From: a bacterium
GTDB taxonomy: Bacteria; Patescibacteriota; Minisyncoccia; Phycocordibacterales; Phycocordibacteraceae
Direction of reading: 5' to 3'
NCBI GenBank assembly: GCA_037200965.1
Contig: JBBCGK010000001.1
Coordinates: 768,001 to 832,000, forward strand
Length of the DNA: 64,000 nt
This document shows positions 25,426 to 60,285 of this stretch, piece by piece. The first letter of the stretch is position 1; each line of letters opens with the position of its first letter. Below the pieces are notes generated by a model. The model saw nothing but the letters and a program-made list of their open reading frames with translations. It searched no databases and was not told where the DNA came from. The position numbers were made by a program, and so were the translations under genes.

Positions 25426-27081
25426 ATGGCAAAGCAGCCGCACAAATACATCTTCGTCGTCGGCGGGGTGATGAGCGGCGTGGGGAAAGGCGTCGCGACC
25501 GCGTCGATCGGGAAGATACTTTCCTCGCGCGGCTTCAAGGTGAACCTCGTCAAGATCGATCCGTACCTCAATGTCGATGCGGGCACGATGAATCCGACCG
25601 AGCACGGCGAAGTGTTCGTGCTCGACTCGGGGCTCGAGACCGACCAGGACATGGGCAACTACGAGCGCTTCCTCGGCCGCGGGCTCGGGCCCGAGGACTA
25701 TATGACTTCCGGGATGGTATACAAGGCGGTCATCGAGCGCGAGCGGGCGCTCGGGTACAAAGGCAAGTTCGTCGAAGCCATCCCGCACGTGCGCGACGAG
25801 ATCATCGAGCGGCTCGAGCGGGCAAGCGAGGCTGCAGGTTCCGATGTATCGGTCATCGAGATCGGCGGCACCGTGGGGGACTTCCAGAACGCCCTTTTCA
25901 TCGAGGCCGGACGCGTCATGCACATGCGGGATCCCCGGGACGTGCTTTTTATCATGGTCTCCTATCTTCCGGTTCCGGGCACCATCGGGGAAATGAAGAC
26001 CAAACCGACCCAAAGCGCGATACGGGATTTGAACCGCTATGGCGTGCAGCCCGAGATCATCATCGCCCGCTCGACGCACGCGCTTGACGCGAAGCGCAAG
26101 GAAAAGCTCGCCGTCTGGTGCAACGTCCTTCCCGAGCGCGTGATCTCCGCGCCGGACGTCAAAAGCGTGTATGACGTGCCGACGAATTTCGAGCGCGACC
26201 GGCTCTCCGATATCCTCCTTAAGATACTCGACCTCAAGACCCGGAAGAGCGCGGACCTCAGGGAATGGGAGCAGTTCGCGAAGCGCGCGCATAACGGCAA
26301 GTCAGCGGTCAAGATCGCGATTGTCGGAAAGTATTTCGATACGGGCGACTTCGTCCTCTCCGACGCCTATCTGTCCGTCATCGAGGCCATCAAGTATTCG
26401 GCGTACGCGCTTGGCGTCCGGCCCGAGCTCCATTGGCTTTCCTCGCACGAGTTCGAGAAGGACCCGAAGGCGGTCGCGAAACTGAAGTCGTACGACGGCA
26501 TCATCGTTCCCGGGGGCTTCGGCGAAAGCGGGATAGAGGGGAAGATACACGTGATCCGCTACGCGCGGGAGAAGAAGATCCCGTATTTCGGCCTCTGCTA
26601 CGGCATGCAGCTCATGACCGTCGAGTTCGCGCGAAACGTCGCGGGCCTCAAGGGCGCGAACACGACCGAGATCAACAAGGATACGCCGCATCCGGTGATC
26701 GATATCCTTCCGGAGCAGAAGGAAAAGCTTGAAAAGAAAGACTATGGCGGCTCCATGCGCCTTGGCGCCTATCCCTGCTACCTGAAGCCCGCAACCATCG
26801 CCCGCGCGGCATACGGGAAGGAAATGGTCGCCGAGCGGCACCGCCACCGCTACGAGGTCAATCCCGACTACGTCTATCGATTGCAGAAGGCGGGCCTCGT
26901 CTTTTCCGGCGTCTCTTCCTTCGCGCACGGGGGCGACCTCATGGAAATCGCGGAGCTTCCGAAATCGAAGCACCCGTTCATGCTCGGCACGCAGTTCCAT
27001 CCCGAATTCAAGGCGCGTCCGCTCTCGCCGCACCCGCTCTTCACCGCGTTCATCAAGGCCGCAAAGGGAAAAAAGAAATAG
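25426..27081 (+). CDS. pyrG: CTP synthase.
   Basis: N-terminal synthetase domain (YIFVVGGVMSGVGKGVATASIG) and a C-terminal class I glutamine amidotransferase domain (GLCYGMQ, H-P-E). Confidence 0.95.
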   Translation: MAKQPHKYIFVVGGVMSGVGKGVATASIGKILSSRGFKVNLVKIDPYLNVDAGTMNPTEHGEVFVLDSGLETDQDMGNYERFLGRGLGPEDYMTSGMVYKAVIERERALGYKGKFVEAIPHVRDEIIERLERASEAAGSDVSVIEIGGTVGDFQNALFIEAGRVMHMRDPRDVLFIMVSYLPVPGTIGEMKTKPTQSAIRDLNRYGVQPEIIIARSTHALDAKRKEKLAVWCNVLPERVISAPDVKSVYDVPTNFERDRLSDILLKILDLKTRKSADLREWEQFAKRAHNGKSAVKIAIVGKYFDTGDFVLSDAYLSVIEAIKYSAYALGVRPELHWLSSHEFEKDPKAVAKLKSYDGIIVPGGFGESGIEGKIHVIRYAREKKIPYFGLCYGMQLMTVEFARNVAGLKGANTTEINKDTPHPVIDILPEQKEKLEKKDYGGSMRLGAYPCYLKPATIARAAYGKEMVAERHRHRYEVNPDYVYRLQKAGLVFSGVSSFAHGGDLMEIAELPKSKHPFMLGTQFHPEFKARPLSPHPLFTAFIKAAKGKKK

Positions 27082-27137
27082 GCTTGCGTGTGTAAAGCGA
27101 AGGGGCGGCACCGGGATGAAACCCGGCGCCGCCCGTT

Positions 27138-27575
27138 TCAGAAGAATATCCTGATGTCGCGTATTGCCTCGTTTGCGTCACGCGGCCGATGCAGCGCGTT
27201 TCGCCAGTATTTCCGCCTGCCGCCGATGATATCGGCGTTCGGAATGCCGAACTGCCGGCGCAGCGTCGATTCATGGCATTTGCCCGGATTGGTTTCTTTT
27301 CCCGCGAGCGCGAAGAAACGACGTATCGCGTCTTTGCCCTCGAGGAGGAGGACCGGAGTCGCATGGCCGAGATAGTGGTCGACAGTCGCTTCCACGATCT
27401 CCTCGGGGCATCGCGGGTACATGCTCTGGATGGTGTTTAGCGCGTTGGCTCGGAAATCCCAGCGATATTCCCGCTGACCCACCACCATAAGTCCGATATT
27501 GGCGATACGGCGCCGTATTTCGGGCGCATACCGCACCGCCTCAGGTTTCAGCAGTGCAACAGTGTGTTCACGCAT
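27138..27575 (-). CDS. Nucleoside diphosphate kinase-like protein (divergent, catalytic His retained).
   Basis: ALLKPEAV aligns with NDK IMIKPDGV. TNPGKCHESTLRRQFG aligns with TNPADSKPGTIRGDF. NALHRPRDANEAIRDIRIFF aligns with NIIHGSDSVESAEKEIALWF. GGAG-type RBS upstream of the ATG at 27575. Confidence 0.6.
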   Translation of the reverse strand: MREHTVALLKPEAVRYAPEIRRRIANIGLMVVGQREYRWDFRANALNTIQSMYPRCPEEIVEATVDHYLGHATPVLLLEGKDAIRRFFALAGKETNPGKCHESTLRRQFGIPNADIIGGRRKYWRNALHRPRDANEAIRDIRIFF

Positions 27576-27663
27576 GGTGTTCTCCCGGAACTGTCTCGGA
27601 TTGCATCGTAACTCGTATGTAAGTTCGTGTCAAGCTCTGCTTCGTGCTGTATACTCGTGCGTA

Positions 27664-28248
27664 ATGGAGGAGATAGAAGCTAAGTTTCTTGGGATAGATA
27701 CCGAGACCATCGAAAAGAGACTTCAGGAGTTAGGGGCGATATTCGAAAAGGAACGCCTCATGTACGCGATATCGTTCGATTTTCCGGGATTTCCGCTCGA
27801 CGCGAACTCCGCGTGGGTCCGGCTCCGCAACGAAGGGGATGTAATCAAAATCGCGTTCAAACAACGGCTTGGGGTAAAGGCCGACGGCGGGAACGACGAC
27901 GGCATGAGAGAAATAGAAACCGAAGCAGGGCACTTTGAGGACATGCGTCAGATATTGCTTGCGATCGGAATGGTGGAGAAGTTCGTTATGGAAAAGAAGC
28001 GCCGTTCCTGGGTTAAGGATGGTATCCGTTACGATATCGATTTCTGGCCGCGGCTCGATCCGTATCTTGAGATCGAGACTGACAGCTGGGACAGGCTCGA
28101 GGAAGCCGCCCGCGAACTGGGCCTCAAGCCCGAAGAGAAGAAGATTTTCTCCGCAAGCCAGATTTATAAAATGGCGGGAATCAACGACACCGACTATGTT
28201 CAGATGACTTTTGCAGAGTGGGTGCCGAGAGATCCGTCCGCTTCGTAA
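27664..28248 (+). CDS. CYTH domain protein (triphosphate tunnel metalloenzyme; CyaB / ThTPase family).
   Basis: N-terminal EIEAKF (ExExK) signature at the ATG at 27664, followed by alternating acidic beta-strand motifs (DIDFWP, LEIETD). About 194 aa. Confidence 0.75.
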   Translation: MEEIEAKFLGIDTETIEKRLQELGAIFEKERLMYAISFDFPGFPLDANSAWVRLRNEGDVIKIAFKQRLGVKADGGNDDGMREIETEAGHFEDMRQILLAIGMVEKFVMEKKRRSWVKDGIRYDIDFWPRLDPYLEIETDSWDRLEEAARELGLKPEEKKIFSASQIYKMAGINDTDYVQMTFAEWVPRDPSAS

Positions 28249-28296
28249 AGCGAAAGGGCGGCACCGGGATGAACCCAGTGCCGCCCCGTAACATCT

Positions 28297-28740
28297 CTAC
28301 GCCCAACATTCGAAGAGCGACGCATCCCAGCGGGCTTCGTCCTGATTTGCCGGACGAAGAACGCCGTTCTTCCAGTATCGCAGGCCATCGCCGAGGTCGT
28401 CAGGGTGATGCACGCCGTACAGATAGCGGAGGGTACGTGTTCCGCATTCGCCAGGGCTCATCTGCGCGCCCGCAAGTTCGCGGAATCTTTCGATCGCATC
28501 GCGCCCGGTGATCAAGAGCATGGAGACGCGATAACCAAGAAAGCTTTGAACCGTCGCCTCGATGACATCGCCCGGGACGCGATACAGCAGATGACCCACG
28601 TATTCTTCGGTCTTCGCGCGGTTGTCGCAGTAAAAACTGGTTTCCCGCGAGATGGTCAGGCCGCTTACCGCGATGTTGCCGCGGATGGCAGGGAGGCGGC
28701 CGATAGCTTCCGGGCGGATAATGGCCACGGTGGATTGCAT
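28297..28740 (-). CDS. Nucleoside diphosphate kinase-like paralog lacking the catalytic histidine.
   Basis: VAIIRPEAIGR ... SPGECGTRTLRYLYG ... YWKNGVLRP aligns with the copy at 27138..27575, but the position of the phospho-His (NALH) is NGVL. GGAGT RBS upstream of the ATG at 28740. Confidence 0.55.
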   Translation of the reverse strand: MQSTVAIIRPEAIGRLPAIRGNIAVSGLTISRETSFYCDNRAKTEEYVGHLLYRVPGDVIEATVQSFLGYRVSMLLITGRDAIERFRELAGAQMSPGECGTRTLRYLYGVHHPDDLGDGLRYWKNGVLRPANQDEARWDASLFECWA

Positions 28741-28872
28741 GGGATACTCCTTACGCAGAGGAACTGTTGCGGTCCGTACCATACACCCCGCAGGAGTGGA
28801 TTGTCGAGCGGACGAAACCGATATCGTTTATGAAAAAAAGGACGGGCCCGAAAGCCCGCCCTCCATCTGCCT

Positions 28873-29508
28873 TTAGACCCTAGCAATCCGCGCCCAGAAC
28901 GTTTCACCGTCCTCCTCCGATCCCAGCTGCAAAGCAAACCCGCAAGCCGCAAGATGCGGAGTGAGGGTCTCCAGCGTCCAGTCGGTAACGAGCATCCTAT
29001 GCTCCGAAGGAATAAGGGGATTGTCGGCGCTCGTCAGTATCCGGTCACCCGTTCCTGACGAACCGATGATAATACCGGATGCCTCTGGCTTGAGGATCCG
29101 GCGGATGCTCGTAAGCGCGGCTTCTATGTTATGGCGCCGGATATGAGCCAACGAGAATGCCGCGACGAATCCGTCGCACCGTTCCGTGACGACCGATGCC
29201 AGATTAAGCACGTTTCCGATCCGGAAGTCGTTTTTCGGATAGCGGAAACGGGCGATAGCGACGAGTTCGGGGCAGGGATCCACCCCTATCGGGTGCCGTA
29301 TTCCGAGTTCGCCGAATGCTTCCATGGCGCCTCCGAACCCGCATCCGATATCCGCAACGACCGGATGCTCGGGTAGGGCATACCGCCAGTGCCATAAAAA
29401 CGAAGTGGCGGTCATGCGGTCGTCGAAGCTTGCGTAGGCAGCGGCCGTGGCGCCGTATGCGGCGAGTGTCGCCCGTTCCATTTCGTCCTGCGGTATGTGC
29501 GCGTTCAA
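28873..29508 (-). CDS. Class I SAM-dependent methyltransferase.
   Basis: Motif I VVADIGCGFGG, motif II-like PIGVDP, and a small Rossmann-fold layout. Confidence 0.7.
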   Translation of the reverse strand: MNAHIPQDEMERATLAAYGATAAAYASFDDRMTATSFLWHWRYALPEHPVVADIGCGFGGAMEAFGELGIRHPIGVDPCPELVAIARFRYPKNDFRIGNVLNLASVVTERCDGFVAAFSLAHIRRHNIEAALTSIRRILKPEASGIIIGSSGTGDRILTSADNPLIPSEHRMLVTDWTLETLTPHLAACGFALQLGSEEDGETFWARIARV

Positions 29509-29587
29509 GGGAACCTCCCCAATGTTTTTCCTGCCTCAATATAACTGTATATCTCTGTATGTCAAATAGCGACTCTTTGTCTGATTT

Positions 29588-30364
29588 CTATTGCCTCAGC
29601 CCAAGTCCTTTCTTTATGAAATACCAGTTGACGGCAAGGAGGATGCCCGCAAGCGCGACCAGAACTCCGGTCGAAGCGAAGATGGAGACGTCGGCAAAGC
29701 CGAGGAAGCCGTACCGGAATCCGTTCACGATATAGAAGATCGGATTGAAAAGCGTCGCTGTCTGCCACCAGTCCGGGAGCGTCCCGATCGAATAGAAGAC
29801 GCCGCCGAGATAGACGAGCGGGGTGAGGACGAAGGTCGGTACGATGGTGATGCCGTCGAAGTTCGTCGCATAGATGCCGTTTATGAGTCCGCCAAGGGCG
29901 AATACGAGGCTTGCGAGCACGAGGAAGAGAAGAACGATGAGCGGATGCGCGATCGAGGGGAGCGCGAAGAAAAGCGAAACCAGAAGCACGAGAATGCCGA
30001 CGAGGACGCCGCGGACGATGCCGCTCGCCACGTACCCGGCGATAAGCGTCACGGGAGAAGTGGGTGAGACAAGCACTTCGTCGATGTTGCGCGAGAAGAA
30101 CTTGGACGTGAAGAAGGTGGTCGCCACGTCGGTATACGCGTTCGTGATCACGGCGAGCATCACGAGTCCCGGGACGACGAAGAGGATATACGGCACGCCC
30201 TCGATGGTGCCGATCCGTGAGCCGAGGATCGCCCCGAAGACCGCGAAATAAAGCACGGACGTGACGAGCGAGGGAAGAAGCGTCTGCGACCAAATGCGGA
30301 TGATGCGCATCACGCCTTTGCGGAGGATCGTATAGAAGGAAACGAGCTGCTGGTCGAAGGGCAT
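29588..30364 (-). CDS. ABC-2 type transporter permease.
   Basis: 6 TM helices with the ABC-2 pattern. The start is adjacent to the upstream ATPase stop. Confidence 0.75.
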   Translation of the reverse strand: MPFDQQLVSFYTILRKGVMRIIRIWSQTLLPSLVTSVLYFAVFGAILGSRIGTIEGVPYILFVVPGLVMLAVITNAYTDVATTFFTSKFFSRNIDEVLVSPTSPVTLIAGYVASGIVRGVLVGILVLLVSLFFALPSIAHPLIVLLFLVLASLVFALGGLINGIYATNFDGITIVPTFVLTPLVYLGGVFYSIGTLPDWWQTATLFNPIFYIVNGFRYGFLGFADVSIFASTGVLVALAGILLAVNWYFIKKGLGLRQ

Positions 30365-33398: not shown

Positions 33399-35291
33399 AT
33401 GAAAATGGATATGAACAAACAAAGCTCAAACAATAAAAAAGTACACCTCACCTCCGCCAATCTCTCCGAGGAGAAGCTGTTTGAGCTACGCCGCATCCTT
33501 CCCGAAGCGTTCAGCGAAAACAAGATTGACTGGGAGAAGCTCCGCACCGTTCTTGGTGACGCAGTAGACGCCCATATCGAGAAGTTCGGCTTTACCTGGG
33601 CAGGAAAAAGCAACGCTATCAAGAATGTTTTGATACCAAGCAAAGCCACACTCAACCCCGCTCCCGACGAGAGCGTGAAGTTCGATGAAAGCGAGAATCT
33701 CTTTATCGAAGGCGACAACCTCGAAGTCTTGAAGCTCTTGCAAAAAGCGTACTTCGAGAAGGTGAAGATGATTTATATAGACCCGCCATACAACACGGGC
33801 GGCGACTTCGTGTATAAGGACAACTTTGCCGCACCGCTCGACAACTATCTCAAGCAGACCGGCCAGAAGAACGGCAACGGCGAGCATCTCACAACCAACA
33901 AGGAGACCAACGGCCGCTTCCACAGCGACTGGCTTTCAATGATGTACCCACGCCTCAAGCTCGCGTGGAATCTTTTGCGTGATGATGGAGTGATATTTGT
34001 TTCGATTGACGATAACGAAGTGCATCATTTGCGAATACTAATGAATGAGATTTTTGGTGAGGAAAACTTCATCACTAATTTTGTTTGGCACTCTAGTACA
34101 GGTGGTGGTATCAGAAGCAAGTTTGCAAACCAGTCTCATCAATACGTTCTATGCTATGCAAAGAGTGTAGAAGACGTTGAGATGTTCTATGCGCCTCTTT
34201 CTGAAGATGCGAAGAAGCAATATAAGAAAGAGGATGAAAAAGGAGTCTATCGGGAGAAGGATTTTGCTTGGAAAAACTCATCGTGGGGAGCAAATCAAAA
34301 ATACTTCATCGAGTGTCCTGATGGTGAAAAAGCGAGACCAAAGGACGGGTATCTTTACCGCTTCATCGAACCAACTTTCAAGGAGAGTCTGGCAAATAAT
34401 ATGGTTGTCTTCAAAGAAGCAAGAAATAGTCCACTGGTAAATGAAAAAGGCGAGCAATCAAAATGGAACATCTATATCAAAAAGTATTTAGGTGATGGGA
34501 CAGGTGCTCCTTCATCAGTCATTCCGCGAGATTTAGTAGGAATCAATAATGAAGGCACTACAGAACTCAATGAACTGTTTGGTTCGAGTTTGTTTGAAAG
34601 CCCGAAGAATGTCCGGCTTTTGACATACCTACTCTCGTTAGCAGATAGCGATGATGGCGACATAATCCTCGATTTCTTTGCTGGCTCTGGTAGCACCTCT
34701 CACGCAGTGATGGCTCTGAACCAAAAGGATGGAATCAATAGAAAGTGGATTGTGGTTCAACTTCCAGAAAAGACTGACACGGATAGTGCCGCGTACAAAG
34801 CTGGATACAAAACCATTGCTGAACTTTCTGTAGAACGCATACGTCGCGCCGCGAAAAAGCTGGATGTCCAAGACGGCTTCAAGGTATTTAGACTGGCAGC
34901 ATCAAACTACCCAGAGAATACTTTTGAGTTCGACCCAGACAAGGCCGAGGAAGAGAACAAGGCGGCCTTCGAGGATTATTTGAAGCAAGCAAAGCGCGCC
35001 AAGCTTATTGACGACCTAGACGAGACGAGCGTCATCTACGAAAACATCGTCAAGGAAGGATTCTCGCTCAACTCCAAGATTCAGGAAGGCGTGCCAGGAA
35101 ACAACAAGGTCTACACCATCACCGACGGCGACCGGCAGTTTTCTATCTGCCTCGACCGTTCGATTGATGACACGACCGTAAAGAACATCACGGAGTGGGC
35201 TAAAGGAGCGACCTTTATCTGCTTCGATAATGCGCTCTCTGACAGCCAGAAAGCAAACCTCGGCCTCCACGTGGAGCTGAAAACGATATAA
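33399..35291 (+). CDS. mod: Type III restriction-modification system methyltransferase subunit (Mod; N6-adenine MTase).
   Basis: DPPY catalytic motif (IYIDPPYNTGGDFVYKDNF) and SAM-binding FxGSG (DFFAGSGST). Directly upstream of, and 3 nt from, a res-like helicase/endonuclease gene. Start taken at MKMDMNK (33399). GC is lower than the host. Confidence 0.85.
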   Translation: MKMDMNKQSSNNKKVHLTSANLSEEKLFELRRILPEAFSENKIDWEKLRTVLGDAVDAHIEKFGFTWAGKSNAIKNVLIPSKATLNPAPDESVKFDESENLFIEGDNLEVLKLLQKAYFEKVKMIYIDPPYNTGGDFVYKDNFAAPLDNYLKQTGQKNGNGEHLTTNKETNGRFHSDWLSMMYPRLKLAWNLLRDDGVIFVSIDDNEVHHLRILMNEIFGEENFITNFVWHSSTGGGIRSKFANQSHQYVLCYAKSVEDVEMFYAPLSEDAKKQYKKEDEKGVYREKDFAWKNSSWGANQKYFIECPDGEKARPKDGYLYRFIEPTFKESLANNMVVFKEARNSPLVNEKGEQSKWNIYIKKYLGDGTGAPSSVIPRDLVGINNEGTTELNELFGSSLFESPKNVRLLTYLLSLADSDDGDIILDFFAGSGSTSHAVMALNQKDGINRKWIVVQLPEKTDTDSAAYKAGYKTIAELSVERIRRAAKKLDVQDGFKVFRLAASNYPENTFEFDPDKAEEENKAAFEDYLKQAKRAKLIDDLDETSVIYENIVKEGFSLNSKIQEGVPGNNKVYTITDGDRQFSICLDRSIDDTTVKNITEWAKGATFICFDNALSDSQKANLGLHVELKTI

Positions 35292-35293
35292 CT

Positions 35294-37924
35294 ATGAAGT
35301 TCAAGTTTGACGCAAACCAAGATTTTCAAATAAACGCAGTCAACGCCATCGTTGGCGTCTTTGAAGGTCAGCCGAAGCGTCAAAGTGTGGTAGTAAATGT
35401 GCCCGCACTTTCCGTTTCCGGCTCATTGCCGCTCCAAACTACATACGGCATCTATCCGAACGAGCTGACGCTTTCCGACGAGGAGGTGTTTGCCAACGTC
35501 TGGAAGATTCAAGAGCAAAACAAAATCGGCAATGGCGGCACGGTTGAGGAGTACGACTTTTCTATCGAGATGGAGACGGGTACGGGTAAGACGTATGTGT
35601 ACCTTCGTACCGTCTTTGAACTCAACAAGCAATACGGATGGAAGAAGTTTATCGTTCTCGTGCCGTCCGTCGCCATCCGCGAGGGCGTCATCAAGACGCT
35701 CCAAATCACCAAAGACCACTTCGCCGAGCTGTACGACAACGTGCCGTACCGCTTCTACGAGTACCAGTCCAAGAACATCTCGCAGGTGAAGCGCTTTGCG
35801 GAATCCAGCAACCTGGAGATTATGGTGATGACGGTAGGTGCGTTCAACAAGGACGCGAACGTGCTCTATGCCGCCCGCGACCAGATGCAGGGCGAGCAGC
35901 CTATCAGCTACATCCAGCGCAGCAACCCCGTCCTCATCCTCGACGAGCCGCAGAATATGGAAGGTGAAGCGACGAAGGAGGCGCTCAAGAACTTCAACGC
36001 GCTTGCACGCCTGCGATACTCCGCGACGCATCGCAATCCGTACAACCTCATGTACCAGCTCACGCCGTTCGATGCGTATCAGCTCGGCCTCGTAAAGAAG
36101 ATTGAGGTGTATTCCGTTACGGATGACGACACCGGCATCTCGCGCCCGTCGCTCAACCTCATCTCCGTTGAATCCGGCAAGGCGCTCAAGGCAAAGTTAG
36201 AGGCCATCGTGAAAGATGCCGACGGCGCATTGAAGCGCAAGAAGCTCACCGTCAAACAGAACGACGACCTCGCGCAGAAGACCGGCAACGACGTATACGC
36301 CGGCTATATCGTGGACGAGCTTGACGCCGATGCGCCAGACCTCGGGCAGATTGGTAGGATTCGCTTTCGCAACAACGTGGAGATTCGCCAGGGTGAAGGC
36401 GTAGCAAACAACAACGAGCAAGTGATGCGCGAGCAGATTGAGCAGACCATCCGCCGCCACTTCGAGAAACGCAACCAGCTCCGCGATATGGGCATCAAGG
36501 TGCTCTCCCTCTTTTTCATAGACAAGGTAGACAACTACGTTCAATCAGACGGGTTTATCCGCTCTGCGTTCATAGCCGAGTTCAATCGCCTCAAGAAAGA
36601 CTATGGCGCTGACGGCATGGACGTGGATACCGTCCACAAGGGATATTTCGCCAAGCGCGGCGAGGAGTATTTGGAGCGAGAGTCCAGCATCGCCGAGAAC
36701 CAGGAAGCATACGAGCTGATTATGAAGGACAAGGAGCGCCTGCTTTCCTTCGATGAGCCGACGGAGTTCATCTTCTCGCACTCCGCACTCAAGGAAGGAT
36801 GGGACAACCCAAACATTTTCAATATCTGCACCCTGCGCGAGACCGTTTCAGTCATCCGCAAGCGCCAGGAGATTGGCCGAGGTATGCGCCTCTGCGTCAA
36901 TCAGGACGGAGAGCGTATTTTCTTGCGCAGCGTCAACCTGCTCTCCGTGATTGCAAACGAGAGCTATACGGAATACGTCTCATCGCTCCAGGGCGAATAC
37001 GAGGAGGACGGTATCTACAAGTCTGCGCCGTTGCCGAACAATGCCAAGCGAAAGACCACGGTGAAGCTCAAGAAAGATTTTGATAAGGACACGGACTTTG
37101 CTGGTATCTGGGAACGCATCTCGAAGAAGACCCGCTATGTCGTGCAGGTTGATAGCGAGCGCGTCATCGAAGCGTCCGCAAAGCAGATTGCGAAGCTCCA
37201 TCTCGCAAAGCCCAAGATGCGCGTCGAGCGCGCGGGCGTGAACATCGCGGCCGAAGGCATCACCGCAAACATCGTAGGCACCCGTGCCGAGGATTTGAGC
37301 CAGACCAAACGCACCATTGACCCTATCGAACTCATCAAAAACGAGACCAAGCTGACGCGCCACACGGTCGCGGAGATTTTGGCGAAAGCGGACAATACCG
37401 ACTCCTTCCTCAAGAATCCCGAACGCTTCTGCTTCGAGGCAACGCGCATCATCAAGGCCGAGCTGGTGAAGGATTACGTTTCCCAGATTCGCTATGAGGT
37501 ACTGCCGGAGCAGTATGACCTCAAGCAGTTCGAGGACATCCCGAGCTACAAGGACGCGACGCACAAGGTGAACAACTCCATCTACGACGCCATCGTGTAT
37601 GACTCCGACGTGGAGAAGAACTTTGCCGTCGCCCTCGATGCCGACGAGCGCGTGAAGCTCTTTATCAAGATGCCCAACTGGTTCAAGGTGAACACGCCTA
37701 TCGGCGGCTACAACCCCGACTGGGCAATCGTTACGGCCAAGCGAGACCTCCAGGGCAATGAGGAGAAGGAGCGCGTGTATTTCGTGATTGAGACGAAGGG
37801 CGACATCTCCAACATGCGCGAGAGCGAAGGACAAAAGATTGCTTCCGCCAAAAAGCACTTTGAAGTCATCGAGGTGAACTACAAGGAGGTCGAGAATTAT
37901 GGACAGTTTGCTGAACAACTATGA
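35294..37924 (+). CDS. res: Type III restriction enzyme Res subunit (SF2 helicase + endonuclease).
   Basis: Helicase motif I METGTGKTYV and motif II ILDEPQN, further SF2 motifs, and a C-terminal nuclease region. About 876 aa. Confidence 0.85.
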   Translation: MKFKFDANQDFQINAVNAIVGVFEGQPKRQSVVVNVPALSVSGSLPLQTTYGIYPNELTLSDEEVFANVWKIQEQNKIGNGGTVEEYDFSIEMETGTGKTYVYLRTVFELNKQYGWKKFIVLVPSVAIREGVIKTLQITKDHFAELYDNVPYRFYEYQSKNISQVKRFAESSNLEIMVMTVGAFNKDANVLYAARDQMQGEQPISYIQRSNPVLILDEPQNMEGEATKEALKNFNALARLRYSATHRNPYNLMYQLTPFDAYQLGLVKKIEVYSVTDDDTGISRPSLNLISVESGKALKAKLEAIVKDADGALKRKKLTVKQNDDLAQKTGNDVYAGYIVDELDADAPDLGQIGRIRFRNNVEIRQGEGVANNNEQVMREQIEQTIRRHFEKRNQLRDMGIKVLSLFFIDKVDNYVQSDGFIRSAFIAEFNRLKKDYGADGMDVDTVHKGYFAKRGEEYLERESSIAENQEAYELIMKDKERLLSFDEPTEFIFSHSALKEGWDNPNIFNICTLRETVSVIRKRQEIGRGMRLCVNQDGERIFLRSVNLLSVIANESYTEYVSSLQGEYEEDGIYKSAPLPNNAKRKTTVKLKKDFDKDTDFAGIWERISKKTRYVVQVDSERVIEASAKQIAKLHLAKPKMRVERAGVNIAAEGITANIVGTRAEDLSQTKRTIDPIELIKNETKLTRHTVAEILAKADNTDSFLKNPERFCFEATRIIKAELVKDYVSQIRYEVLPEQYDLKQFEDIPSYKDATHKVNNSIYDAIVYDSDVEKNFAVALDADERVKLFIKMPNWFKVNTPIGGYNPDWAIVTAKRDLQGNEEKERVYFVIETKGDISNMRESEGQKIASAKKHFEVIEVNYKEVENYGQFAEQL

Positions 37925-39634: not shown

Positions 39635-40608
39635 TCGTCCCTGCAAAAGAACTCCTAGATTTTGCCTACAAGAAATTCTCTGTGGGTGCCTATAACATCC
39701 ACAACCTCGAGCAGTTGATGGGACTCCTCTATGGAAGCCAAAAATCAAACGCGCCCTTTATCGTTCAGGCGTACCCGAGCACCCTCAACTACACGGACGC
39801 TAGCATGCTCGAAGCCCTTTTCCATGAGGCAGACAAGCTTTTTCCTGACCTGATTTTTGCCGTCAGTATTGATCATGGCGATGAAGCTACATGTATGAGA
39901 GCTATTGATTCGGGAGCGTACTCACACGTGATGATAGACGCTTCAATGGAAACCTTTGAGAAGAATATCGAGATTACGAAACGTGTCGTCGATCATGCGC
40001 ATTCTCGCGGCGTATCCGTGGAAGGTATGGTAGGAAAACTCGGTGGTCTGGAAAAGCACATGAAAGTTCTCGACGTATCCGAAGTGCAATTGACCACCGT
40101 TGAACAGGCACGAGAGTTTGCGGAGAGAACTGGCTGCGACAGTCTTGCTGTGTCTATCGGTACACTACATGGTGCTAACAAGGCTCCAGACGGCATACCT
40201 CGAAAGGTAGACCTCGATCGTCTCAAGGAAATAGGTGAAGCGCTCGAAGGTACTCCACTTGTTATGCACGGTTCGTCCTGCCTGCCACAGGAGGAAGTAA
40301 GACGGGTAGACGCCGCAGGAGGAAAGCTTGAACGCGTCGGAGGAATGGATGAAACACAGCAAAGTGAGGTACATAAACTTGGAGTTGCTCAGATAAATGT
40401 AAACAGCGATGGCCTTCTTATCTGGACGCGCTCGATCAGAGAATATCTGAGGGACTATCCAGGCGTGATTGATTTACGTGAGTCGGGCAAGGCTTTTATG
40501 CAGGAGTATGCGAGTTTCATAGCTCACAAGAATGATGTGTTCGGCTCATCCGGCAAACTTGATGCGTTGACAGAACACTACGAAACCCCATGGACATTAA
40601 TGAACTAG
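39631..40608 (+). CDS. fba: Class II fructose-bisphosphate aldolase family protein.
   Basis: VSIDHGDE (zinc-binding His), HGSS, and a GTLHG motif. About 325 aa. Confidence 0.85.
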   Translation: MIVPAKELLDFAYKKFSVGAYNIHNLEQLMGLLYGSQKSNAPFIVQAYPSTLNYTDASMLEALFHEADKLFPDLIFAVSIDHGDEATCMRAIDSGAYSHVMIDASMETFEKNIEITKRVVDHAHSRGVSVEGMVGKLGGLEKHMKVLDVSEVQLTTVEQAREFAERTGCDSLAVSIGTLHGANKAPDGIPRKVDLDRLKEIGEALEGTPLVMHGSSCLPQEEVRRVDAAGGKLERVGGMDETQQSEVHKLGVAQINVNSDGLLIWTRSIREYLRDYPGVIDLRESGKAFMQEYASFIAHKNDVFGSSGKLDALTEHYETPWTLMN

Positions 40609-41348
40609 AAAAAATCGATACGACCGTTATCAGCGACCTAATCGTCTCGCGTCTTCCATTGCCACTGCAAACATCACAAAAAGAGAATTTACTCTCGCCC
40701 AAGCCTCAAGCGTTACAAGACGTCATTGCTGATATCGAAAAGATAGAACATGAATGGAAGCTTGATACTGCTGACGAAGGTCACACTTACGGACGTAAGC
40801 ATGCTGGTGAGACTATTCAACTTTGGTCTGTGCCGCCTAAGAGTGCGCAAGTACTGGAGAATCTCGTTGTACTTACGGGCGCTAAGACCATTCTTGAAAT
40901 AGGAACCTCAGCAGGATACGCTGCGCTTTTCTTAGCTCATGGTGCCAAAGCAAATGGCGGACATGTTTATACGATCGAGCTTCTTAAGGAGAAAGCTGAC
41001 CTTGCTCGGGGTAATTTTGATAAGTCTGGCCTTGATAACATCACGCTTATAGAAGATGAGGCGTCAAAAGTCTTGAGCGCTTGGGATAATGGGAAAATAG
41101 ACTTTGTTTTTCTCGATGCCGATAAGGAAAACTACGGAAAATATTTTGACCAACTTGTACCACTTATGAATATTAGTGGTCTTATCGTAGCTGATAACGT
41201 GAATGACTACGGTCACATGATGGAAGATTATTTGCAGAAGGTAAGTGGTACGCATCTTCCAAAGACGAGAACTGATCACAGGGTTAAGAGCTATTACCTA
41301 GCAATGCTTGAAAATGGGTTGATGGTTACTCAGAAGATATCTGAATAG
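40590..41348 (+). CDS. Class I SAM-dependent O-methyltransferase (catechol-OMT-like, family 3).
   Basis: ILEIGTSAGYAALFLA, DFVFLDADKENY and the LIVADNV motif. Confidence 0.8.
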   Translation: MDINELEKIDTTVISDLIVSRLPLPLQTSQKENLLSPKPQALQDVIADIEKIEHEWKLDTADEGHTYGRKHAGETIQLWSVPPKSAQVLENLVVLTGAKTILEIGTSAGYAALFLAHGAKANGGHVYTIELLKEKADLARGNFDKSGLDNITLIEDEASKVLSAWDNGKIDFVFLDADKENYGKYFDQLVPLMNISGLIVADNVNDYGHMMEDYLQKVSGTHLPKTRTDHRVKSYYLAMLENGLMVTQKISE

Positions 41349-41526
41349 TTTTATTATTGAGAATTATTTTACTTTTCAAGCATCCTGAGAAATTAGGTCC
41401 AGAAGTACATATTTGGACTTCTCAAAAGGTAGTTTGGGCTCATATCTGCGACAGCCGACCTCAGCGAGAGCAGGACTAGCGTTCCAACACCGTCCCAGAC
41501 TCCCGCTCGATAAGCTTACTTTCTTC

Positions 41527-42126
41527 ATGGAGAAAATAGAGCAGCTGCGGGATGAGGTGCACAATCTATATGCCCAAAAACTTCCTGGCCGTGCTGACTG
41601 GGCTGACTGGATCTATGATAAGCATGTCGTTCTTGTTGGCAATGAAGCAAGGAAGATAGCCGAAATGTACGGAGGAAGTCCGGAGCTTGCAGAGGCTGCT
41701 GGACTTTTGCACGATGTGGCCGACGCAGTAATGAAGCGGCAGGATCCGAATCATGAAAAGGAAAGCCTGCGTATTGCACGGGAGATGCTGCAGAAGACCG
41801 GATTTGGCGACAAGGAGATAGCCATAGTGGTAGACGATGCGATCGCGAAGCATAGTTGCCATGGAGAGACTCGGCCCGTCTCTGCAGAGGGGAAGGCAAT
41901 GGCAGCGGGAGACGGTGTCGTTCATCTCACAAGTGATTTTTATAAGATTGCCGAGGCGGGGAAACTTGGTCATAAATCACCACGAGAGGTTGCAGAGTGG
42001 GCCCTGCCAAAACTAGAACGCGATTTCACCAATAAGATTGCCTATGATGATTTAAGGGAGGAGATACGGCCAGATTACGAACAACTTAGGAAACACTTTC
42101 AGGATCTAGCCTCGGCCGGGGTGTAG
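41527..42126 (+). CDS. HD domain phosphohydrolase.
   Basis: H...LLHDVAD motif. Start at MEKIEQL (ATG 41527). Confidence 0.7.
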   Translation: MEKIEQLRDEVHNLYAQKLPGRADWADWIYDKHVVLVGNEARKIAEMYGGSPELAEAAGLLHDVADAVMKRQDPNHEKESLRIAREMLQKTGFGDKEIAIVVDDAIAKHSCHGETRPVSAEGKAMAAGDGVVHLTSDFYKIAEAGKLGHKSPREVAEWALPKLERDFTNKIAYDDLREEIRPDYEQLRKHFQDLASAGV

Positions 42127-47813: not shown

Positions 47814-48617
47814 ATGACTGGTGTGGAATTCGTCAACACCGACCTCCCCGATATCATCGAATTGCGGGGGGTTACCCAGCGCTATGGGCAGAGGACGGTT
47901 CTGGACGGACTCAACCTGCTCATTGAAGACAAACCCGATCAGGGCCAGTTCGTAGTCCTGCTCGGCATCTCCGGCTCCGGCAAGTCAACGATCTTCCGCT
48001 ATCTCAATGGTCTGCAGACGCCGACCAGCGGGGCGGTGCTGATCAAGGGCAAGCCGGTGTCAGAGTATGGTGCGGTCAGTACGGTATTCCAGGACTATTC
48101 GTCCTTGCCGTGGCGGACCGTGCTTCAAAACGTCGAACTTCCGCTCGTCTTCAAAAGCGTGAAGAAGAGGGAACGGCGTGAGCGGGCGCTCGAGATAATC
48201 GCCCGTGTGGGACTTAAGGGTCACGAGCATAAATACGCTCGTACCCCGACGCTCTCCGGCGGCCAGCTGCAGCGGGTCGCTATCGCGAGAAGCTTGATTG
48301 CAAATCCGGAGATCATCCTGATGGATGAACCTTTCGGCGCGCTTGACGGCATCACCCGCTTCGAAATGCAGCAGCTGCTCGCTGATCTGTGGAAGACTTC
48401 GCAGTCGACCATCGTCTTCGTCACGCATGACCAGCAAGAAGCGGTCTTCCTGGGCGACGACATCTATGTGCTGGATCCGCGGATCGGCAAGATCGGTTCG
48501 CGTATCCGTGTGGATCTTCCGCTCGTGCGGGACCTTTCCACCAAACGTGACCCGCGCTTCATGCAGCTGGTCACCGAGGTAGATATGGCTCTGATGGAGA
48601 CCAGTCTGCCGCGCTAA
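47814..48617 (+). CDS. ABC transporter ATP-binding protein (SsuB/TauB-like).
   Basis: Walker [10 protein letters not shown], signature [14 protein letters not shown], Walker [12 protein letters not shown]. Confidence 0.9.
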
Positions 48618-48646
48618 GAATTGTTATTTCTACTGCACCTTCAGAA

Positions 48647-49669: not shown

Positions 49670-49719
49670 AGTCCTGACATTGTTCCAAACAGCCGCCTAA
49701 GCCATTTCTCCCGCTTACC

Positions 49720-56282: not shown

Positions 56283-56984
56283 ATGCAAAAGAACATTCTC
56301 ATCACCGGCAGGCCAGGGAGCGGGAAGTCGACGCTCCTGCGGAAACTAATCGGTCGTATTCCGGCAAAGGAAGGGTTTGTCACGAACGAAATCCTTGGCG
56401 AACACGGGCGGCTAGGTTTTGAGGTAGAAACCCGTTCCGGAAGCAAGGCGGTCTTGGCGCACATCAATTTCAACACCCCGCGCAAGGTTTCCAAGTATTT
56501 CGTCGATATCGGCAGCCTCGAGTCGATGCTTCCCGCAGTTTCCGACTTCAAGGACGGCGGTATCCTTTATCTAGACGAGATCGGGCAGATGCAGCTTTTT
56601 TCGGAACGCTTCAAAGATCTGGTCTTGCGGTACCTGGACGCCCGGAATACCTGTATCGCTACCCTTTCCTCTGTATTCGAGGATGGCTTTACAGATGCCA
56701 TCAGGAAGCGGGACGACATAGTCCTGGTCGAGATTTCGGCAGCAAACAGGGAAGAGCAGGAGGTGTTTATAACTCAGCTTCTGAAGAAGATCGAAAAAGC
56801 GAGAAAGTACAGTTCCGAACCCGAGCGGTTCACCCGCACGGAATCGGGAATAGAACTGCACTCGGAGCATGGCACGAGAACGCTGGTTCATACGGAAGGA
56901 AAGTGGCACTGCGATTGCGAATTCTTCAAACGATACGGGATCTGCAGCCATGCTATAGCTGCCGGGGAATTTGCTAGGATGTAG
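56283..56984 (+). CDS. P-loop NTPase (THEP1 / NTPase_1-like) fused to a C-terminal SWIM zinc finger.
   Basis: Walker A ITGRPGSGKSTL, Walker B ILYLDEIG, and a C-terminal CDCEFFKRYGICSHAIA (a CxC...CxH SWIM pattern). Confidence 0.6.
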   Translation: MQKNILITGRPGSGKSTLLRKLIGRIPAKEGFVTNEILGEHGRLGFEVETRSGSKAVLAHINFNTPRKVSKYFVDIGSLESMLPAVSDFKDGGILYLDEIGQMQLFSERFKDLVLRYLDARNTCIATLSSVFEDGFTDAIRKRDDIVLVEISAANREEQEVFITQLLKKIEKARKYSSEPERFTRTESGIELHSEHGTRTLVHTEGKWHCDCEFFKRYGICSHAIAAGEFARM

Positions 56985-56986
56985 TC

Positions 56987-57442
56987 ATGGACGCGCTCAA
57001 AAAGTTCTTGAAATCACAACGCCTTTTAGCTCTCGCCGTGCACGGTGAAAATGGACCATGGATAGCTAACGTCTATTTTGGCAGCGACGATGTGAACCGC
57101 CTCTACTTCATAAGTTCCGACACCAACATCCACAGTCTGATGATCCTGAAGGATCCGCGTGTGGCGTTCTCGACGGCATGGTTCGATCCCACAAACCACG
57201 GGGATCGAAAAGGGGTACAAGGGAAGGGTGTCTGCCGTCCGGCGAAAAACGACGAAGAAATCGCTGTGGGCGTCCGGTTGCATAACGAGAATTTCCCTGA
57301 GTTTAAGAAGAAAGTTACGACAGACTGGATCCGCACGAACGCAGGGGGCTCCACGGTCTGGGTGGTCGAGCCGAGCTATATGAAATACTGGGATGATGCG
57401 GTGTATGGAGACGACGAAAGCGAGGAATTCGCTATCGGCTAG
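56987..57442 (+). CDS. Pyridoxamine 5'-phosphate oxidase-like FMN-binding split-barrel protein.
   Basis: PNPOx-like pattern (LALAVHGENGPWIANVYF ... RVAFS ... VVEPSYMKYWD). Starts 3 nt after the upstream stop. Confidence 0.65.
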   Translation: MDALKKFLKSQRLLALAVHGENGPWIANVYFGSDDVNRLYFISSDTNIHSLMILKDPRVAFSTAWFDPTNHGDRKGVQGKGVCRPAKNDEEIAVGVRLHNENFPEFKKKVTTDWIRTNAGGSTVWVVEPSYMKYWDDAVYGDDESEEFAIG

Positions 57443-57452
57443 TACATAACGG

Positions 57453-58046
57453 ATGGAAACCGAAATAGAAGCCAAGTTCGCGGACATACATACTGAAACG
57501 CTTCGCGCCAGGCTCAAGGAGATCGGCGCGGTTCTTGAATACCCCGAAACGCTGATGCGGCGCAGGAATTTCGACTATCCCGACGGCCGTCTTAATACGA
57601 TCGGCGGGTGGATCCGCATCCGGGATGAGGGGAACAAAGTCACCTTAAGCTATAAGCAGCTTAACGACCGGACGCTCCACGGAACGAAGGAGGTGTCGGT
57701 GGACGTAAGCGATTTTGACAAGGCCGCGGATTTCCTGACTTCGATCGGGCTCGAGGCGAAATCCTATCAAGAGACGAAACGGGAGAAATGGATGTATCAA
57801 GACATGGAAATCACCATCGATACCTGGCCCTGGATTCCGCCGTTCATGGAGCTTGAAGGATCGAGCGAAGAAGCGCTTAAAGATGCCGCAGCCGCACTTG
57901 GTCTCGACTGGTCCCGCGCCATGCACGGAAGCGTTGAGACGGTATATCAGATGCACTACGATTTCCCCGAATCGGAAATCGATGCGTGGGGAAGCATCAC
58001 GTTCGTCCCGGAGCCGGACTGGCTCCTTACACGGAAGAAGGCATAG
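57453..58046 (+). CDS. CYTH domain protein (second paralog).
   Basis: N-terminal METEIEAKF (ExExK), with DTWPW and MELEGS acidic strands. Clear paralog of 27664..28248. Confidence 0.75.
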   Translation: METEIEAKFADIHTETLRARLKEIGAVLEYPETLMRRRNFDYPDGRLNTIGGWIRIRDEGNKVTLSYKQLNDRTLHGTKEVSVDVSDFDKAADFLTSIGLEAKSYQETKREKWMYQDMEITIDTWPWIPPFMELEGSSEEALKDAAAALGLDWSRAMHGSVETVYQMHYDFPESEIDAWGSITFVPEPDWLLTRKKA

Positions 58047-58062
58047 CGAGCTGATCCCCGTC

Positions 58063-58503
58063 ATGATCTATCTTGAGCGGCCGGAAGATTTCAATCCGAA
58101 ATTCGAGATCGGGAGCTGTTTTCTTAAGCGGGACGGAAAGTTCCTCCTGCTGTTGCGGCAGGATCATAAGCCGGAAGGGAATACCTGGGGCGTCCCGGCA
58201 GGGAAGATAGATGCGGGAGAGACTCCTGCGCAGGCCACAGCGAGAGAAATGGCGGAAGAAACGGGATACTCGGCAGCCCCGAAAGACCTGCGGTTTTTCA
58301 GGACAGGATATTCCCGCTTTCCCGAGTACGACTTTATCTATCACATGTTCTTCTTGAATCTGGCACGTGATCACGAAGTAGTGATTGACCCAGCTTCGCA
58401 CAAGGATTTCAGATGGGTAACCCCTGCGGAAGCGTTTGCGATGCCGCTTATCGGGGATCTCGAGGACTATATCAAGCTGTTTTACGAAGCTGATACACTT
58501 TAA
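58063..58503 (+). CDS. NUDIX hydrolase.
   Basis: Nudix box GKIDAGETPAQATAREMAEETGY (GX5EX7REUXEEXGU). ATG near 58062-58064. Confidence 0.8.
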   Translation: MIYLERPEDFNPKFEIGSCFLKRDGKFLLLLRQDHKPEGNTWGVPAGKIDAGETPAQATAREMAEETGYSAAPKDLRFFRTGYSRFPEYDFIYHMFFLNLARDHEVVIDPASHKDFRWVTPAEAFAMPLIGDLEDYIKLFYEADTL

Positions 58504-58505
58504 GG

Positions 58506-59024
58506 ATGCTCGGAGTAAAGCGAGGGACGGTAGTATTGGTTCCGCATAATCCGGAGTGGCCCCCGCTGTTCGATAAAGAGAAAAAACTACTTCTTGAAGC
58601 ATTCGGAGACAGAATAAAAGCCATAGAGCATATCGGAAGCACCGCGATTCCCGGTATGCCCGCAAAGCCGATCATAGATATCAATGTGGCCGTCAAATCG
58701 CTTGATGATATCGGTGATTTCATCCAGATACTTCCCGGGCTTGGATATGAATATATTCCGGAGAGACGTTTTGCTGACCGTCAGTTCTTTCCCAAGGGTC
58801 CGCCGGAATATAGAACCCATCATTTGAATCTCGTGGAAATAACCAGCAAGACCGGATGGATGAATGCTCTTGCATTCCGGAACTATCTGCGGAAGAATTC
58901 TTTAGCTAGGGAAGAATATCGGAAACTGAAGGAATCGTTGGCAGACCAGTATGCTGATAATCGTGAGGAGTATACCGAGCGCAAGAGCGCCTTCGTACAT
59001 GAAATACTGAAGAAAGCCCAGTGA
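58506..59024 (+). CDS. GrpB family protein (UPF0157; nucleotidyltransferase-fold).
   Basis: HIGSTAIPGMPAKPIIDINV signature. About 172 aa. Confidence 0.7.
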   Translation: MLGVKRGTVVLVPHNPEWPPLFDKEKKLLLEAFGDRIKAIEHIGSTAIPGMPAKPIIDINVAVKSLDDIGDFIQILPGLGYEYIPERRFADRQFFPKGPPEYRTHHLNLVEITSKTGWMNALAFRNYLRKNSLAREEYRKLKESLADQYADNREEYTERKSAFVHEILKKAQ

Positions 59025-59096
59025 CCGCTATCGGCAACAAAGTCCGAGTCGATAGAGTTTGTTATACTTCAACCATTAGCGGCTAAAACGATCCTT

Positions 59097-59534
59097 ATGG
59101 CGCGGACGAGCACCTATCTCAATTTCACGAACAAGAGCGAAGAGGCGTTTACTTTCTATAAATCAGTCTTCGGCGGCGAATTCACGGGAGGCATACACCG
59201 GATGGGCGATGTCCCGCCGCAGGAAGGCGTCCCGGCGCTTGCGGAGGCCGATAGGAATCTCGTAATGCATATCGAGCTCTCGATACTCGGCGGGCACGTT
59301 CTCATGGGAACCGATGCACCGGAATCGATGGGCTTCAAGCTCGTCGAGGGCAATAACGTGCACGTCAATCTCGAGCCGGATACGAAAGAAGAAGCCGAGC
59401 GACTTTTCACGGCCCTTTCGGAAGGAGGGAAAGTATCGATGCCGCTCCAAATGATGTTCTGGGGCGCGTACTTCGGGTCGTTCTCCGACAAGTACGGAAT
59501 CAACTGGATGGTGAACTATAGCTCAAAGGATTAG
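59097..59534 (+). CDS. VOC superfamily / PhnB-like (3-demethylubiquinone-9 3-methyltransferase-domain) protein.
   Basis: YLNF ... EEAFTFYKSVFG ... GHVLMGTDAP ... MFWGAYFGSFSDKYGINWMV pattern. Confidence 0.65.
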   Translation: MARTSTYLNFTNKSEEAFTFYKSVFGGEFTGGIHRMGDVPPQEGVPALAEADRNLVMHIELSILGGHVLMGTDAPESMGFKLVEGNNVHVNLEPDTKEEAERLFTALSEGGKVSMPLQMMFWGAYFGSFSDKYGINWMVNYSSKD

Positions 59535-59538
59535 CCCC

Positions 59539-60285
59539 ATGGCCAAGCCGACAACGAATGAGTTTTTCGATCTCAATAAATTTCCGAAGGAGCCTGGCAT
59601 CGTGTATTTCGCGCTCTCGATGCCGCTTCTGAATAACACTCAGAGCCCGCAGAACTGCTACGGCGCGGACGAGCACCTCATATCCAAGATTCAGGTCTCG
59701 AATGTCGGGGCGCAGGTCGTCTATACCGACAGCTTGTATCTCTACAGCGGCGAGCCCGCGATGGAACTGAAGCTCAAGCATCAGAAGCTTATCGAAGAGC
59801 ACAAGCAGGGATGGCTCAACCTCATCAAGAAGAATATTTATATCGTCCCGAGCGGCTTTACTTTCATGACCTGGAGCCAGCTTCTCCTCGACTGCCCGAA
59901 GTTCTCCTCGTACCTTGTCGAATTCCGCCGCATCTTTGAAAATGATGCGCAGCTCCGCGGGTATGTCACGCTCGATATCCAAGGAACCGGAAGGGAAGTG
60001 AATGAATACAGTATCGGCTACATGCTCGAAGAAATACTGACGGATTACCTGGTCGCCAAGGGCCACATGCGTCTCCAGAACGATTACACCAAGGACAAGG
60101 AGCAGTGGATACTCAACTGCTACCACGGAAAACCCCATCGCTCCCATATCTATCTGCACCAGCGGAATTTCTTTAAGCTCGACAATGCGAAGAACGTATA
60201 CCAGAACGCGTGGTATGACCTGGTGGCCAAAAAGCTCTACGAATTCGACCGGCTCGATATTGATACGTTCGACTTCGGGAAGTGA
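59539..60285 (+). CDS. Hypothetical protein (last gene of the 56283..60285 operon).
   Basis: 248-aa ORF starting 5 nt after the upstream stop. No known motif. Confidence 0.45.
   Translation: MAKPTTNEFFDLNKFPKEPGIVYFALSMPLLNNTQSPQNCYGADEHLISKIQVSNVGAQVVYTDSLYLYSGEPAMELKLKHQKLIEEHKQGWLNLIKKNIYIVPSGFTFMTWSQLLLDCPKFSSYLVEFRRIFENDAQLRGYVTLDIQGTGREVNEYSIGYMLEEILTDYLVAKGHMRLQNDYTKDKEQWILNCYHGKPHRSHIYLHQRNFFKLDNAKNVYQNAWYDLVAKKLYEFDRLDIDTFDFGK

Follow-up and report, generated by a model that had tools for sequence, protein, structure and literature searches.

The window analysed here is a 64,000-nucleotide stretch of DNA from a bacterium of the Phycocordibacteraceae (Patescibacteriota; GenBank assembly GCA_037200965.1, contig JBBCGK010000001.1, positions 768,001 to 832,000). 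Within it, a gene for a CYTH protein, or triphosphate tunnel metalloenzyme (TTM), is flanked by two genes for proteins resembling nucleoside diphosphate kinase (NDK), here called A and B. The three open reading frames (ORFs) were present in the ORF listing of the window at the coordinates named beforehand in a first-pass annotation: A at 27138..27575 on the minus strand (145 amino acids, ATG start, with a Shine-Dalgarno-like GGGAG 6 nt upstream), the CYTH gene at 27664..28248 on the plus strand (194 amino acids) and B at 28297..28740 on the minus strand (147 amino acids, with a Shine-Dalgarno-like AAGGAG before the ATG at 28740). At NCBI, A is named nucleoside-diphosphate kinase (MEJ0053973.1) and B is a hypothetical protein.

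Fold and active-site residues of A and B

The flanking genes had been proposed to encode NDK-fold paralogs, and this was borne out. Against the Pfam NDK profile PF00334 (gathering cut-off 27), A scored 44.2 bits (E 2e-11) and B 24.8 bits (E 2e-5), just under the cut-off; both were below the cut-off of 155 of the NCBIfam NDK equivalog NF001908, with 36.6 bits for A and 20.2 bits for B. The two proteins were 37% identical over 142 amino acids without gaps (E 4e-35). AF2 models of both, built on a 21-sequence alignment, had pLDDT values of 96.3 for A and 94.7 for B, and in a Foldseek comparison with the PDB all top matches of A and B were NDKs (TM 0.72–0.81), indicating that the NDK fold of both copies was secure.

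A had been said to keep the catalytic histidine and B to lack it, as was confirmed in a multiple alignment including canonical NDKs. In the pairwise, family and canonical-NDK alignments alike, H129 of A (N126-A-L-H129-R-P-R) aligned with the NDK nucleophile His118, and Leu128 of B (N-G-V-L128-R-P) stood at the same position. This leucine was not an assembly error, since an identical B protein was encoded on 3 contigs, from three independent assemblies. A shifted active-site histidine in B was looked for and none was identified: H50 lay at a variable alignment position, and in the column of H111/H112 histidine was the commonest residue family-wide, also in members with the catalytic histidine, indicating that H111/H112 was not a relocated nucleophile. 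The active-site pattern of canonical NDKs is N-x-x-H-[GA]-S-D (PROSITE-type). The HGSD that the first-pass annotation had read in the two copies was present in neither, A reading NALHRPR and B NGVLRPA.

Elsewhere in the active site of A, K10, Y53, R106 and N126 were conserved along with H129 and the equivalent of T94 was kept; in the sequence alignment, R88 of canonical NDKs was matched by Phe and F60 by Val, two losses that may be compensated by R130 and Tyr123. B carried Arg for Lys12, Met for Thr94 and a shifted Tyr, and kept Arg at the R88 position. It also kept the family invariants P11, G92, P97, Cys, R106, N126, R130 and E136, and among the near-invariant positions only the nucleophile and K12 were missing. 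Judged by these residues, A is probably an active phosphohistidine transferase and B a probable non-catalytic paralog, likely a pseudo-kinase. B might also sense nucleoside triphosphates (NTPs), as had been proposed.

The NDK-like clade and its CYTH partner

Relatives of the two proteins were sought by exhaustive HMMER search of 1.84 billion cluster representatives with a profile made from A and B. At E<=1e-3, 406 proteins were obtained, 136 of them at E<=1e-10. The best 150 of the 406 were mostly of 135–160 amino acids and had a common signature, KPE ... YP ... G..P..C...T[IL]R..[FY]G, followed by a hairpin of ~10 residues and then Y[YWF]xN[AG][IV]HRP[KR]..EA.RD..F. Positions central to NDK were conserved in the clade (K12 91%, Y52 91%, R105 100%, N115 98% and H118 95%), and others departed from the canonical enzyme: R88 was replaced by hydrophobic residues, F60 had no conserved aromatic, and G119-S120-D121 became R-P-K/R (G119 to Arg in 85%, S120 to Pro in 62%, D121 to Lys or Arg). 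E129 was mostly Asp, Tyr occupied the V112 position, a Cys of the Kpn loop was 99% conserved, and a beta-hairpin of ~10 residues was inserted before NxxH. Against the clade hidden Markov model (HMM), A scored 151 bits and B 132 bits, and the signature residues Cys100, R106, Y123, N126, R130 and E136 were present in both. On these signatures, the clade is a distinct branch of the NDK superfamily, and A and B are not canonical NDKs.

B was not a runaway branch, since it was 43% identical to its closest relative, against 40% for A. In a rough neighbour-joining tree, A and B fell in an 11-member subclade with a shared 5-residue insertion. The nucleophile histidine was absent in three of these 11 (Leu, Tyr and Tyr) and in 7 of 139 members of the wider family, mostly with Tyr instead; such recurrent loss points to a histidine-independent role and not to random decay. 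Two proteins of 130 amino acids, P0165 and P0166, represented a short, divergent NDK group outside the clade, also with Tyr for the nucleophile histidine (NAVYTS).

The distribution of the clade was followed with a peptide pattern from an 8-sequence alignment, which covers 12% of the family, so that the locus counts are lower bounds. It matched at least four of 185,579 GTDB species genomes (Zambryskibacteria, Parcubacteria-group, Saccharibacteria and one unclassified metagenome-assembled genome) and at least 13 metagenome contigs, and gave no match among viral contigs. The clade members in named genomes were all from Patescibacteria. By word-indexed search, in which A and B were compared with 5.8 billion proteins and a 125-sequence family profile was also used, nothing was recovered beyond the queries themselves, four family members and canonical NDKs, and no ortholog of B was among them. 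No account of the clade, or of an NDK-CYTH association, was found in a literature search.

The middle gene had been called a second CYTH protein of the window, and its product indeed matched Pfam PF01928 with 56.6 bits (cut-off 23.2) and was 34% identical (E 1e-31) to the other copy, encoded at 57453..58046. Its motifs were intact: ExExK (EIEAK), RxR (in WVRLR), K66, E83, R113, D126 and, in the last strand, ExE (LEIET). All of them were invariant across the CYTHs linked to NDK-like genes. When this CYTH was combined with its relatives into a profile, the best solved match was SaTTM (7ns8, E 4e-14), followed by PH1819 and 1yem. SaTTM removes the terminal phosphate from inorganic triphosphate (PPPi) and, less efficiently, from ATP or GTP (PMC8233210).

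Class IV adenylate cyclases have been defined by an HFxxxxExExK motif, a small residue for the first Arg of RxR and Ala for the second Glu of ExE (PMC8233210). The flanked CYTH had no HF motif, starting M-E-E-I-E-A-K, and retained both arginines and both glutamates; its TIGR00318 score was 32.9 bits against a cut-off of 57.95. Assignment as a class IV adenylate cyclase was rejected on these grounds, and the protein is predicted to be a catalytically intact TTM of the triphosphatase type, since intact ExExK, RxR and ExE predict hydrolysis of the gamma-phosphate of PPPi or NTP and not cyclisation. An aromatic residue stacking in W/YxRxR has been assigned to thiamine triphosphatases (ThTPases; Vogt 2021, PMC8233210). 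The flanked CYTH has Trp directly before RxR, and the NDK-linked CYTHs of other loci have Phe, which suggests an organic, rather than purely inorganic, triphosphate as substrate; no ThTPase was matched by the CYTH profile among solved chains at E<=0.01.

To see how the genes are arranged elsewhere, fetched loci were scanned with the clade and CYTH profiles and their ORFs were read, giving ~16 distinct loci, of which ~14 were informative. A CYTH gene lay directly beside the NDK-like gene in seven of the ~14 (the window, L005, L006, L012, L013, L014 and L019; L008, L009 and L020 were near-duplicates of L005). The pair was on the same strand, 64–115 bp apart, in four of the seven, and L013 had the opposite order with a 1-bp gap. 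Across the adjacent loci, identities were 26–50% for the NDK-like proteins and 28–61% for the CYTHs, the flanking genes differed, and the pairwise divergences of the two proteins correlated (r 0.86 with the window left out). A rough model put the probability of seven adjacent pairs among ~14 loci arising by chance at P ~5e-14, though these loci are to some degree dependent on one another. Co-occurrence of the two families across genomes was thus found. As for the functional association claimed for them, adjacency in these deeply diverged loci favoured it, and the particular role suggested, NTP supply, was not established: the remodelled pocket (R88 and F60 lost, HRP for HGSD) belongs to a rare clade and not to ordinary NDKs.

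The arrangement in L006 (5968-7096, a Parcubacteria-group genome) closely resembled B and CYTH of the window, with two tandem NDK-like paralogs and a convergent CYTH gene ~50 bp away. One L006 paralog had HRP and the other HCP after the histidine, and a similar pair of HRP and HCP types was seen among the representatives (P0011 and P0022), so that paralog pairs may be a stable feature of that lineage.

Other neighbours of NDK-like genes showed a recurring theme, namely an NDK-like protein coupled to an enzyme hydrolysing phosphorylated nucleotides. P0125 and P0139 (343–345 amino acids) combined the NDK-like domain with a C-terminal HD phosphohydrolase domain that was assignable to no particular HD subfamily, a Ham1 NTP pyrophosphatase was encoded just upstream in L012, and in L021 (1604-6095) P0067 was the fourth gene of an operon with RelA_SpoT (362 amino acids), TIR+NUDIX (630 amino acids) and SpoT-like HD_4 (178 amino acids) genes, the last for a small alarmone hydrolase of RelA/SpoT type. 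The RelA_SpoT and TIR-NUDIX proteins matched PADLOC candidate defence models (PDC-S33, PDC-S07 and TIR classes). A 177-aa protein without a family match was translationally coupled after P0067; it was considered as a hidden CYTH and rejected (hhalign probability 0.4%). In L004 (1079-2329, P0009), an N-terminal TauD/TfdA-type dioxygenase was fused to the NDK-like domain, between secY and adk.

A protein of ~406 amino acids with CxxxCxxC (CKWQCAYC, radical-SAM-like) and no Pfam match was encoded convergently to the NDK-like/CYTH pair in several loci. Its gene lay on the minus strand at 7094-8311 of L005, 6138-7361 of L012, 1946-3166 of L014 and 5518-5793 of L011, and in L011 it came directly after the NDK-like gene with no CYTH between. 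A methyltransferase gene was found downstream of P0128 in L022 and another upstream of B; a methyltransferase as second conserved partner was rejected, the two being not detectably related.

Expression signals and surroundings

Promoter-like and terminator-like sites were called, at the level of patterns, by consensus scan and sequence inspection. A and CYTH diverge from an 88-bp spacer that holds back-to-back promoter-like sites on both strands (27605..27655), whose -35 hexamers overlap (TTGACA on the minus and GTGTCA on the plus strand). The end of the CYTH -10 box is 8 nt from the ATG, upstream of which no Shine-Dalgarno-like sequence could be seen, and the CYTH mRNA may be leaderless. For B, the scan gave a promoter-like site at 28778..28807 on the minus strand (TCGACA-18-TATGGT); since the alternative ATG, at 28782, is upstream of this site, the start at 28740 was favoured.

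The stop codon of A is immediately followed by a GC-rich, terminator-like hairpin of 13 bp (27103..27134, minus strand; -33.3 kcal/mol, z -5.2). Another, of 14 bp, comes after that of B (28255..28287, minus strand; -33.2 kcal/mol, z -4.9) and fills the 48 bp that separate CYTH from the convergent B gene. With their ~11-nt tails included (TTCGCTTTAC), the two hairpins were identical at 42 of 46 nt, against only about half of the coding DNA, and the two differences in the stem both preserve pairing. No further copy was present in the window, nor any in the loci of other organisms. A box in the 5′ untranslated region (CCG..ACAGTTCC) was also common to A and B, before both Shine-Dalgarno-like sequences. 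The likeness of hairpins and leaders suggests shared cis-regulation or gene conversion. An Rfam scan of 26800..29800 gave no match even at E<=1, so no known riboswitch was present there. With its own promoter-like and terminator-like site for each gene, A, CYTH and B are probably separate transcripts and not an operon.

The surroundings in the window were housekeeping genes (ftsEX, pyrG and an ABC transporter) of normal GC content, with pyrG, convergent, as the immediate downstream neighbour of A. Three stretches (34001-36000, 40001-42000 and 48001-50000) had a G+C of 0.47–0.50 against ~0.58 elsewhere and may be acquired segments.

The other CYTH gene (57453-58046, plus strand) carries the NCBI name 'class IV adenylate cyclase'. 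Its product had no HF motif and kept both RxR arginines and both ExE glutamates, so that by the published determinants it is probably a triphosphatase and not an adenylate cyclase. It belongs to a tightly packed run of genes on one strand (56283..60285) encoding a THEP1-type NTPase, a PNPOx-like protein, this CYTH, a NUDIX protein, GrpB and a glyoxalase-like protein. Both CYTH copies of the window thus sit among nucleotide-handling genes. A functional link between the two places, which the first-pass annotation had entertained, came down to the paralogy of the CYTHs alone, the run at 56283..60285 being a separate cluster.

A possible gamma-phosphate module and known systems

From the folds, the residue status, the family membership and the adjacency observed, we infer catalytic activity, a role for B, a coupling and a type of substrate: the three genes would form an accessory module acting on terminal (gamma) phosphates in a minority of Patescibacteria, with A as active transferase, B as non-catalytic paralog and CYTH as triphosphatase. 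We give this reading about an even chance of being right. A would autophosphorylate on His129 from an NTP, by the ping-pong mechanism of NDK, and then pass the phosphate to a diphosphate acceptor; with its nucleotide pocket remodelled, its specificity may differ from that of a housekeeping NDK. CYTH would remove the terminal phosphate from a triphosphate, either PPPi or an NTP-like organic triphosphate. In many lineages the two genes have been inherited as a pair, which makes it probable that the NDK-like protein and the TTM draw on a common triphosphate pool, where one would load the terminal phosphate and the other take it off. B, an old paralog that lost the nucleophile and kept the fold and most binding residues, would be incapable of ping-pong transfer; most likely it would bind nucleotide without catalysis or join A in a hetero-oligomer.

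Several observations weigh against such a module. A is without the canonical R88, F60 and HGSD, and NDP-kinase activity is not guaranteed. The flanked CYTH was 28–31% identical to the NDK-linked CYTHs elsewhere, against 32–36% for the other CYTH of the window. Co-transcription is unsupported, given that the strand switches from gene to gene and the promoter-like and terminator-like sites are separate. The loci compared lack phylogenetic independence. A neighbouring CYTH is missing from about half of the informative ones (L004, L007, L010/L015, L016, L021 and L022), and L011 retains the flanking radical-SAM-like gene without a CYTH. With identical substrates, moreover, loading and removing the same gamma-phosphate would amount to futile cycling.

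A plainer explanation is that A is a divergent NDK making CTP, GTP and UTP, B a redundant duplicate, and CYTH a house-cleaning PPPase with no connection to either, placed next to them by chance as can occur in streamlined genomes. A is above the Pfam NDK threshold, bears the NDK name at NCBI and keeps the catalytic K, Y, R105, N and H; pyrG is its convergent neighbour, the L004 member lies between secY and adk, and no canonical NDK is encoded within the 64-kb window. The clade is so rare, however, with 406 of 1.84 billion representatives and four GTDB genomes matched by the 12%-coverage pattern, that it cannot be the general NDK of Patescibacteria; A also scores far below the NCBIfam equivalog cut-off (36.6 against 155), and adjacency to CYTH persists across 26–50% protein identity and different flanking genes. 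We regard this explanation as unlikely. That B is merely a decaying pseudogene in the making, without function and incidental to A, would agree with its score just below the Pfam cut-off, its loss of the nucleophile, K12 and T94, its hypothetical status and the lack of an ortholog in the word-indexed search. Yet its ORF is intact, with a good Shine-Dalgarno-like sequence, a promoter-like site and the conserved 3′ hairpin; its fold is confidently predicted, most family invariants are kept and the family HMM gives it 132 bits; loss of the histidine recurs in the subclade and in the wider family; and L006 likewise keeps two paralogs beside a CYTH. A relic is therefore very unlikely, and a role as partner is favoured for B because its fold is retained, along with most clade invariants and expression signals of its own.

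It is also conceivable that the NDK-like protein phosphorylates thiamine diphosphate, pyrophosphate or an alarmone of the ppGpp/ppApp type and that the TTM is the matching hydrolase, the product being a small-molecule signal. The remodelled pocket would fit, with R88 and F60 lost, a basic HRP[K/R] beside the histidine, Tyr at V112 and an invariant Cys, as would the aromatic W/F before RxR, the stacking determinant of ThTPases (Vogt 2021, PMC8233210), the P0067 operon with RelA_SpoT, SpoT-like HD_4 and TIR-NUDIX, and the existence of HD fusions. Attractive as the idea is, all of this is circumstantial. The CYTH profile matches archaeal TTMs and not ThTPases, and nucleotide binding may have been preserved if Tyr makes up for the missing Phe and R130 for R88. 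We know of no NDK-fold activity that makes non-standard triphosphates, and consider such a make-and-break pair quite unlikely. Its fuller form, in which the clade would be a phosphohistidine enzyme making, for example, thiamine triphosphate from thiamine diphosphate, inorganic triphosphate from pyrophosphate or a hyperphosphorylated alarmone, with the TTM as dedicated hydrolase and B as regulator or sensor subunit, is a long shot; if true, Patescibacteria would have a synthase/hydrolase pair for signalling that was not known before. Least credible is a part in an anti-phage or toxin-type nucleotide-depletion system. The RelA_SpoT and TIR-NUDIX genes beside P0067 match candidate defence models, but L021 alone looks defence-like, PADLOC gave no matches for A, B or CYTH, viral-contig relatives were lacking, and the neighbourhood in the window is housekeeping with normal GC; we hold this to be highly improbable.

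The physiological role of prokaryotic CYTH/TTM enzymes has been described as largely elusive (PMC8233210), and a conserved, co-inherited partner gene offers a concrete and testable hypothesis for it. A and B are a natural pair with and without the nucleophile, a system for studying the rise of a bacterial pseudo-kinase. Two annotations would need correction, as A is probably not a standard NDK and the second CYTH probably not an adenylate cyclase. If the substrate is not a nucleoside diphosphate, an enzyme fold that ranks among the most conserved would gain a new reaction.

Compared with canonical NDKs (Ndk/NME1-type, EC 2.7.4.6), the clade has the same fold and a similar length (~145 amino acids), and A keeps the histidine and the equivalents of K12, Y52, R105 and N115. 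It differs at R88 and F60, in NxxHRP[K/R] for NxxHGSD, in E129 being mostly Asp, in the Kpn-loop Cys, in Tyr at V112 and in the ~10-residue hairpin insertion, and B is also without the histidine. Canonical NDK is universal, whereas the clade is rare and patchy. The flanked CYTH resembles SaTTM (Saci_0718) and the Pyrococcus CYTH, 'cluster 3' TTMs (PMC8233210), in being a single domain of ~190 amino acids with ExExK, RxR and ExE intact. SaTTM has Ala54 where the flanked CYTH has Trp, and other loci Phe, of the ThTPase-type W/YxRxR; for the archaeal enzymes of the SaTTM type there is no report of a conserved NDK-like neighbour, and the flanked CYTH is bacterial (Patescibacteria).

A phosphotransferase is likewise joined to an enzyme cleaving short phosphate chains, through gene order, fusion or binding, in CYTH-CHAD beside ppk (PMC6416229), in plant TTM1/2, which are kinase-CYTH fusions (PMC8233210), and in h-Prune paired with NM23-H1 (PMC3440374). 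The kinase family differs in the first two (PPK1 and a P-loop uridine-kinase-like domain), and h-Prune is a DHH phosphatase and not a CYTH; none of the three is an NDK-fold/CYTH gene pair.

To our knowledge, no bacterial counterpart of B has been described, and none turned up in the literature searches. Eukaryotic group II NME proteins and the C-terminal NDK-like domain of RP2 have lost catalytic residues and have binding or structural roles, often beside active paralogs. Like B, they have the NDK fold with catalytic residues lost. They are eukaryotic and mostly ciliary or multidomain, whereas B is a free-standing bacterial protein, with Leu for His, beside an active-looking copy and a TTM.

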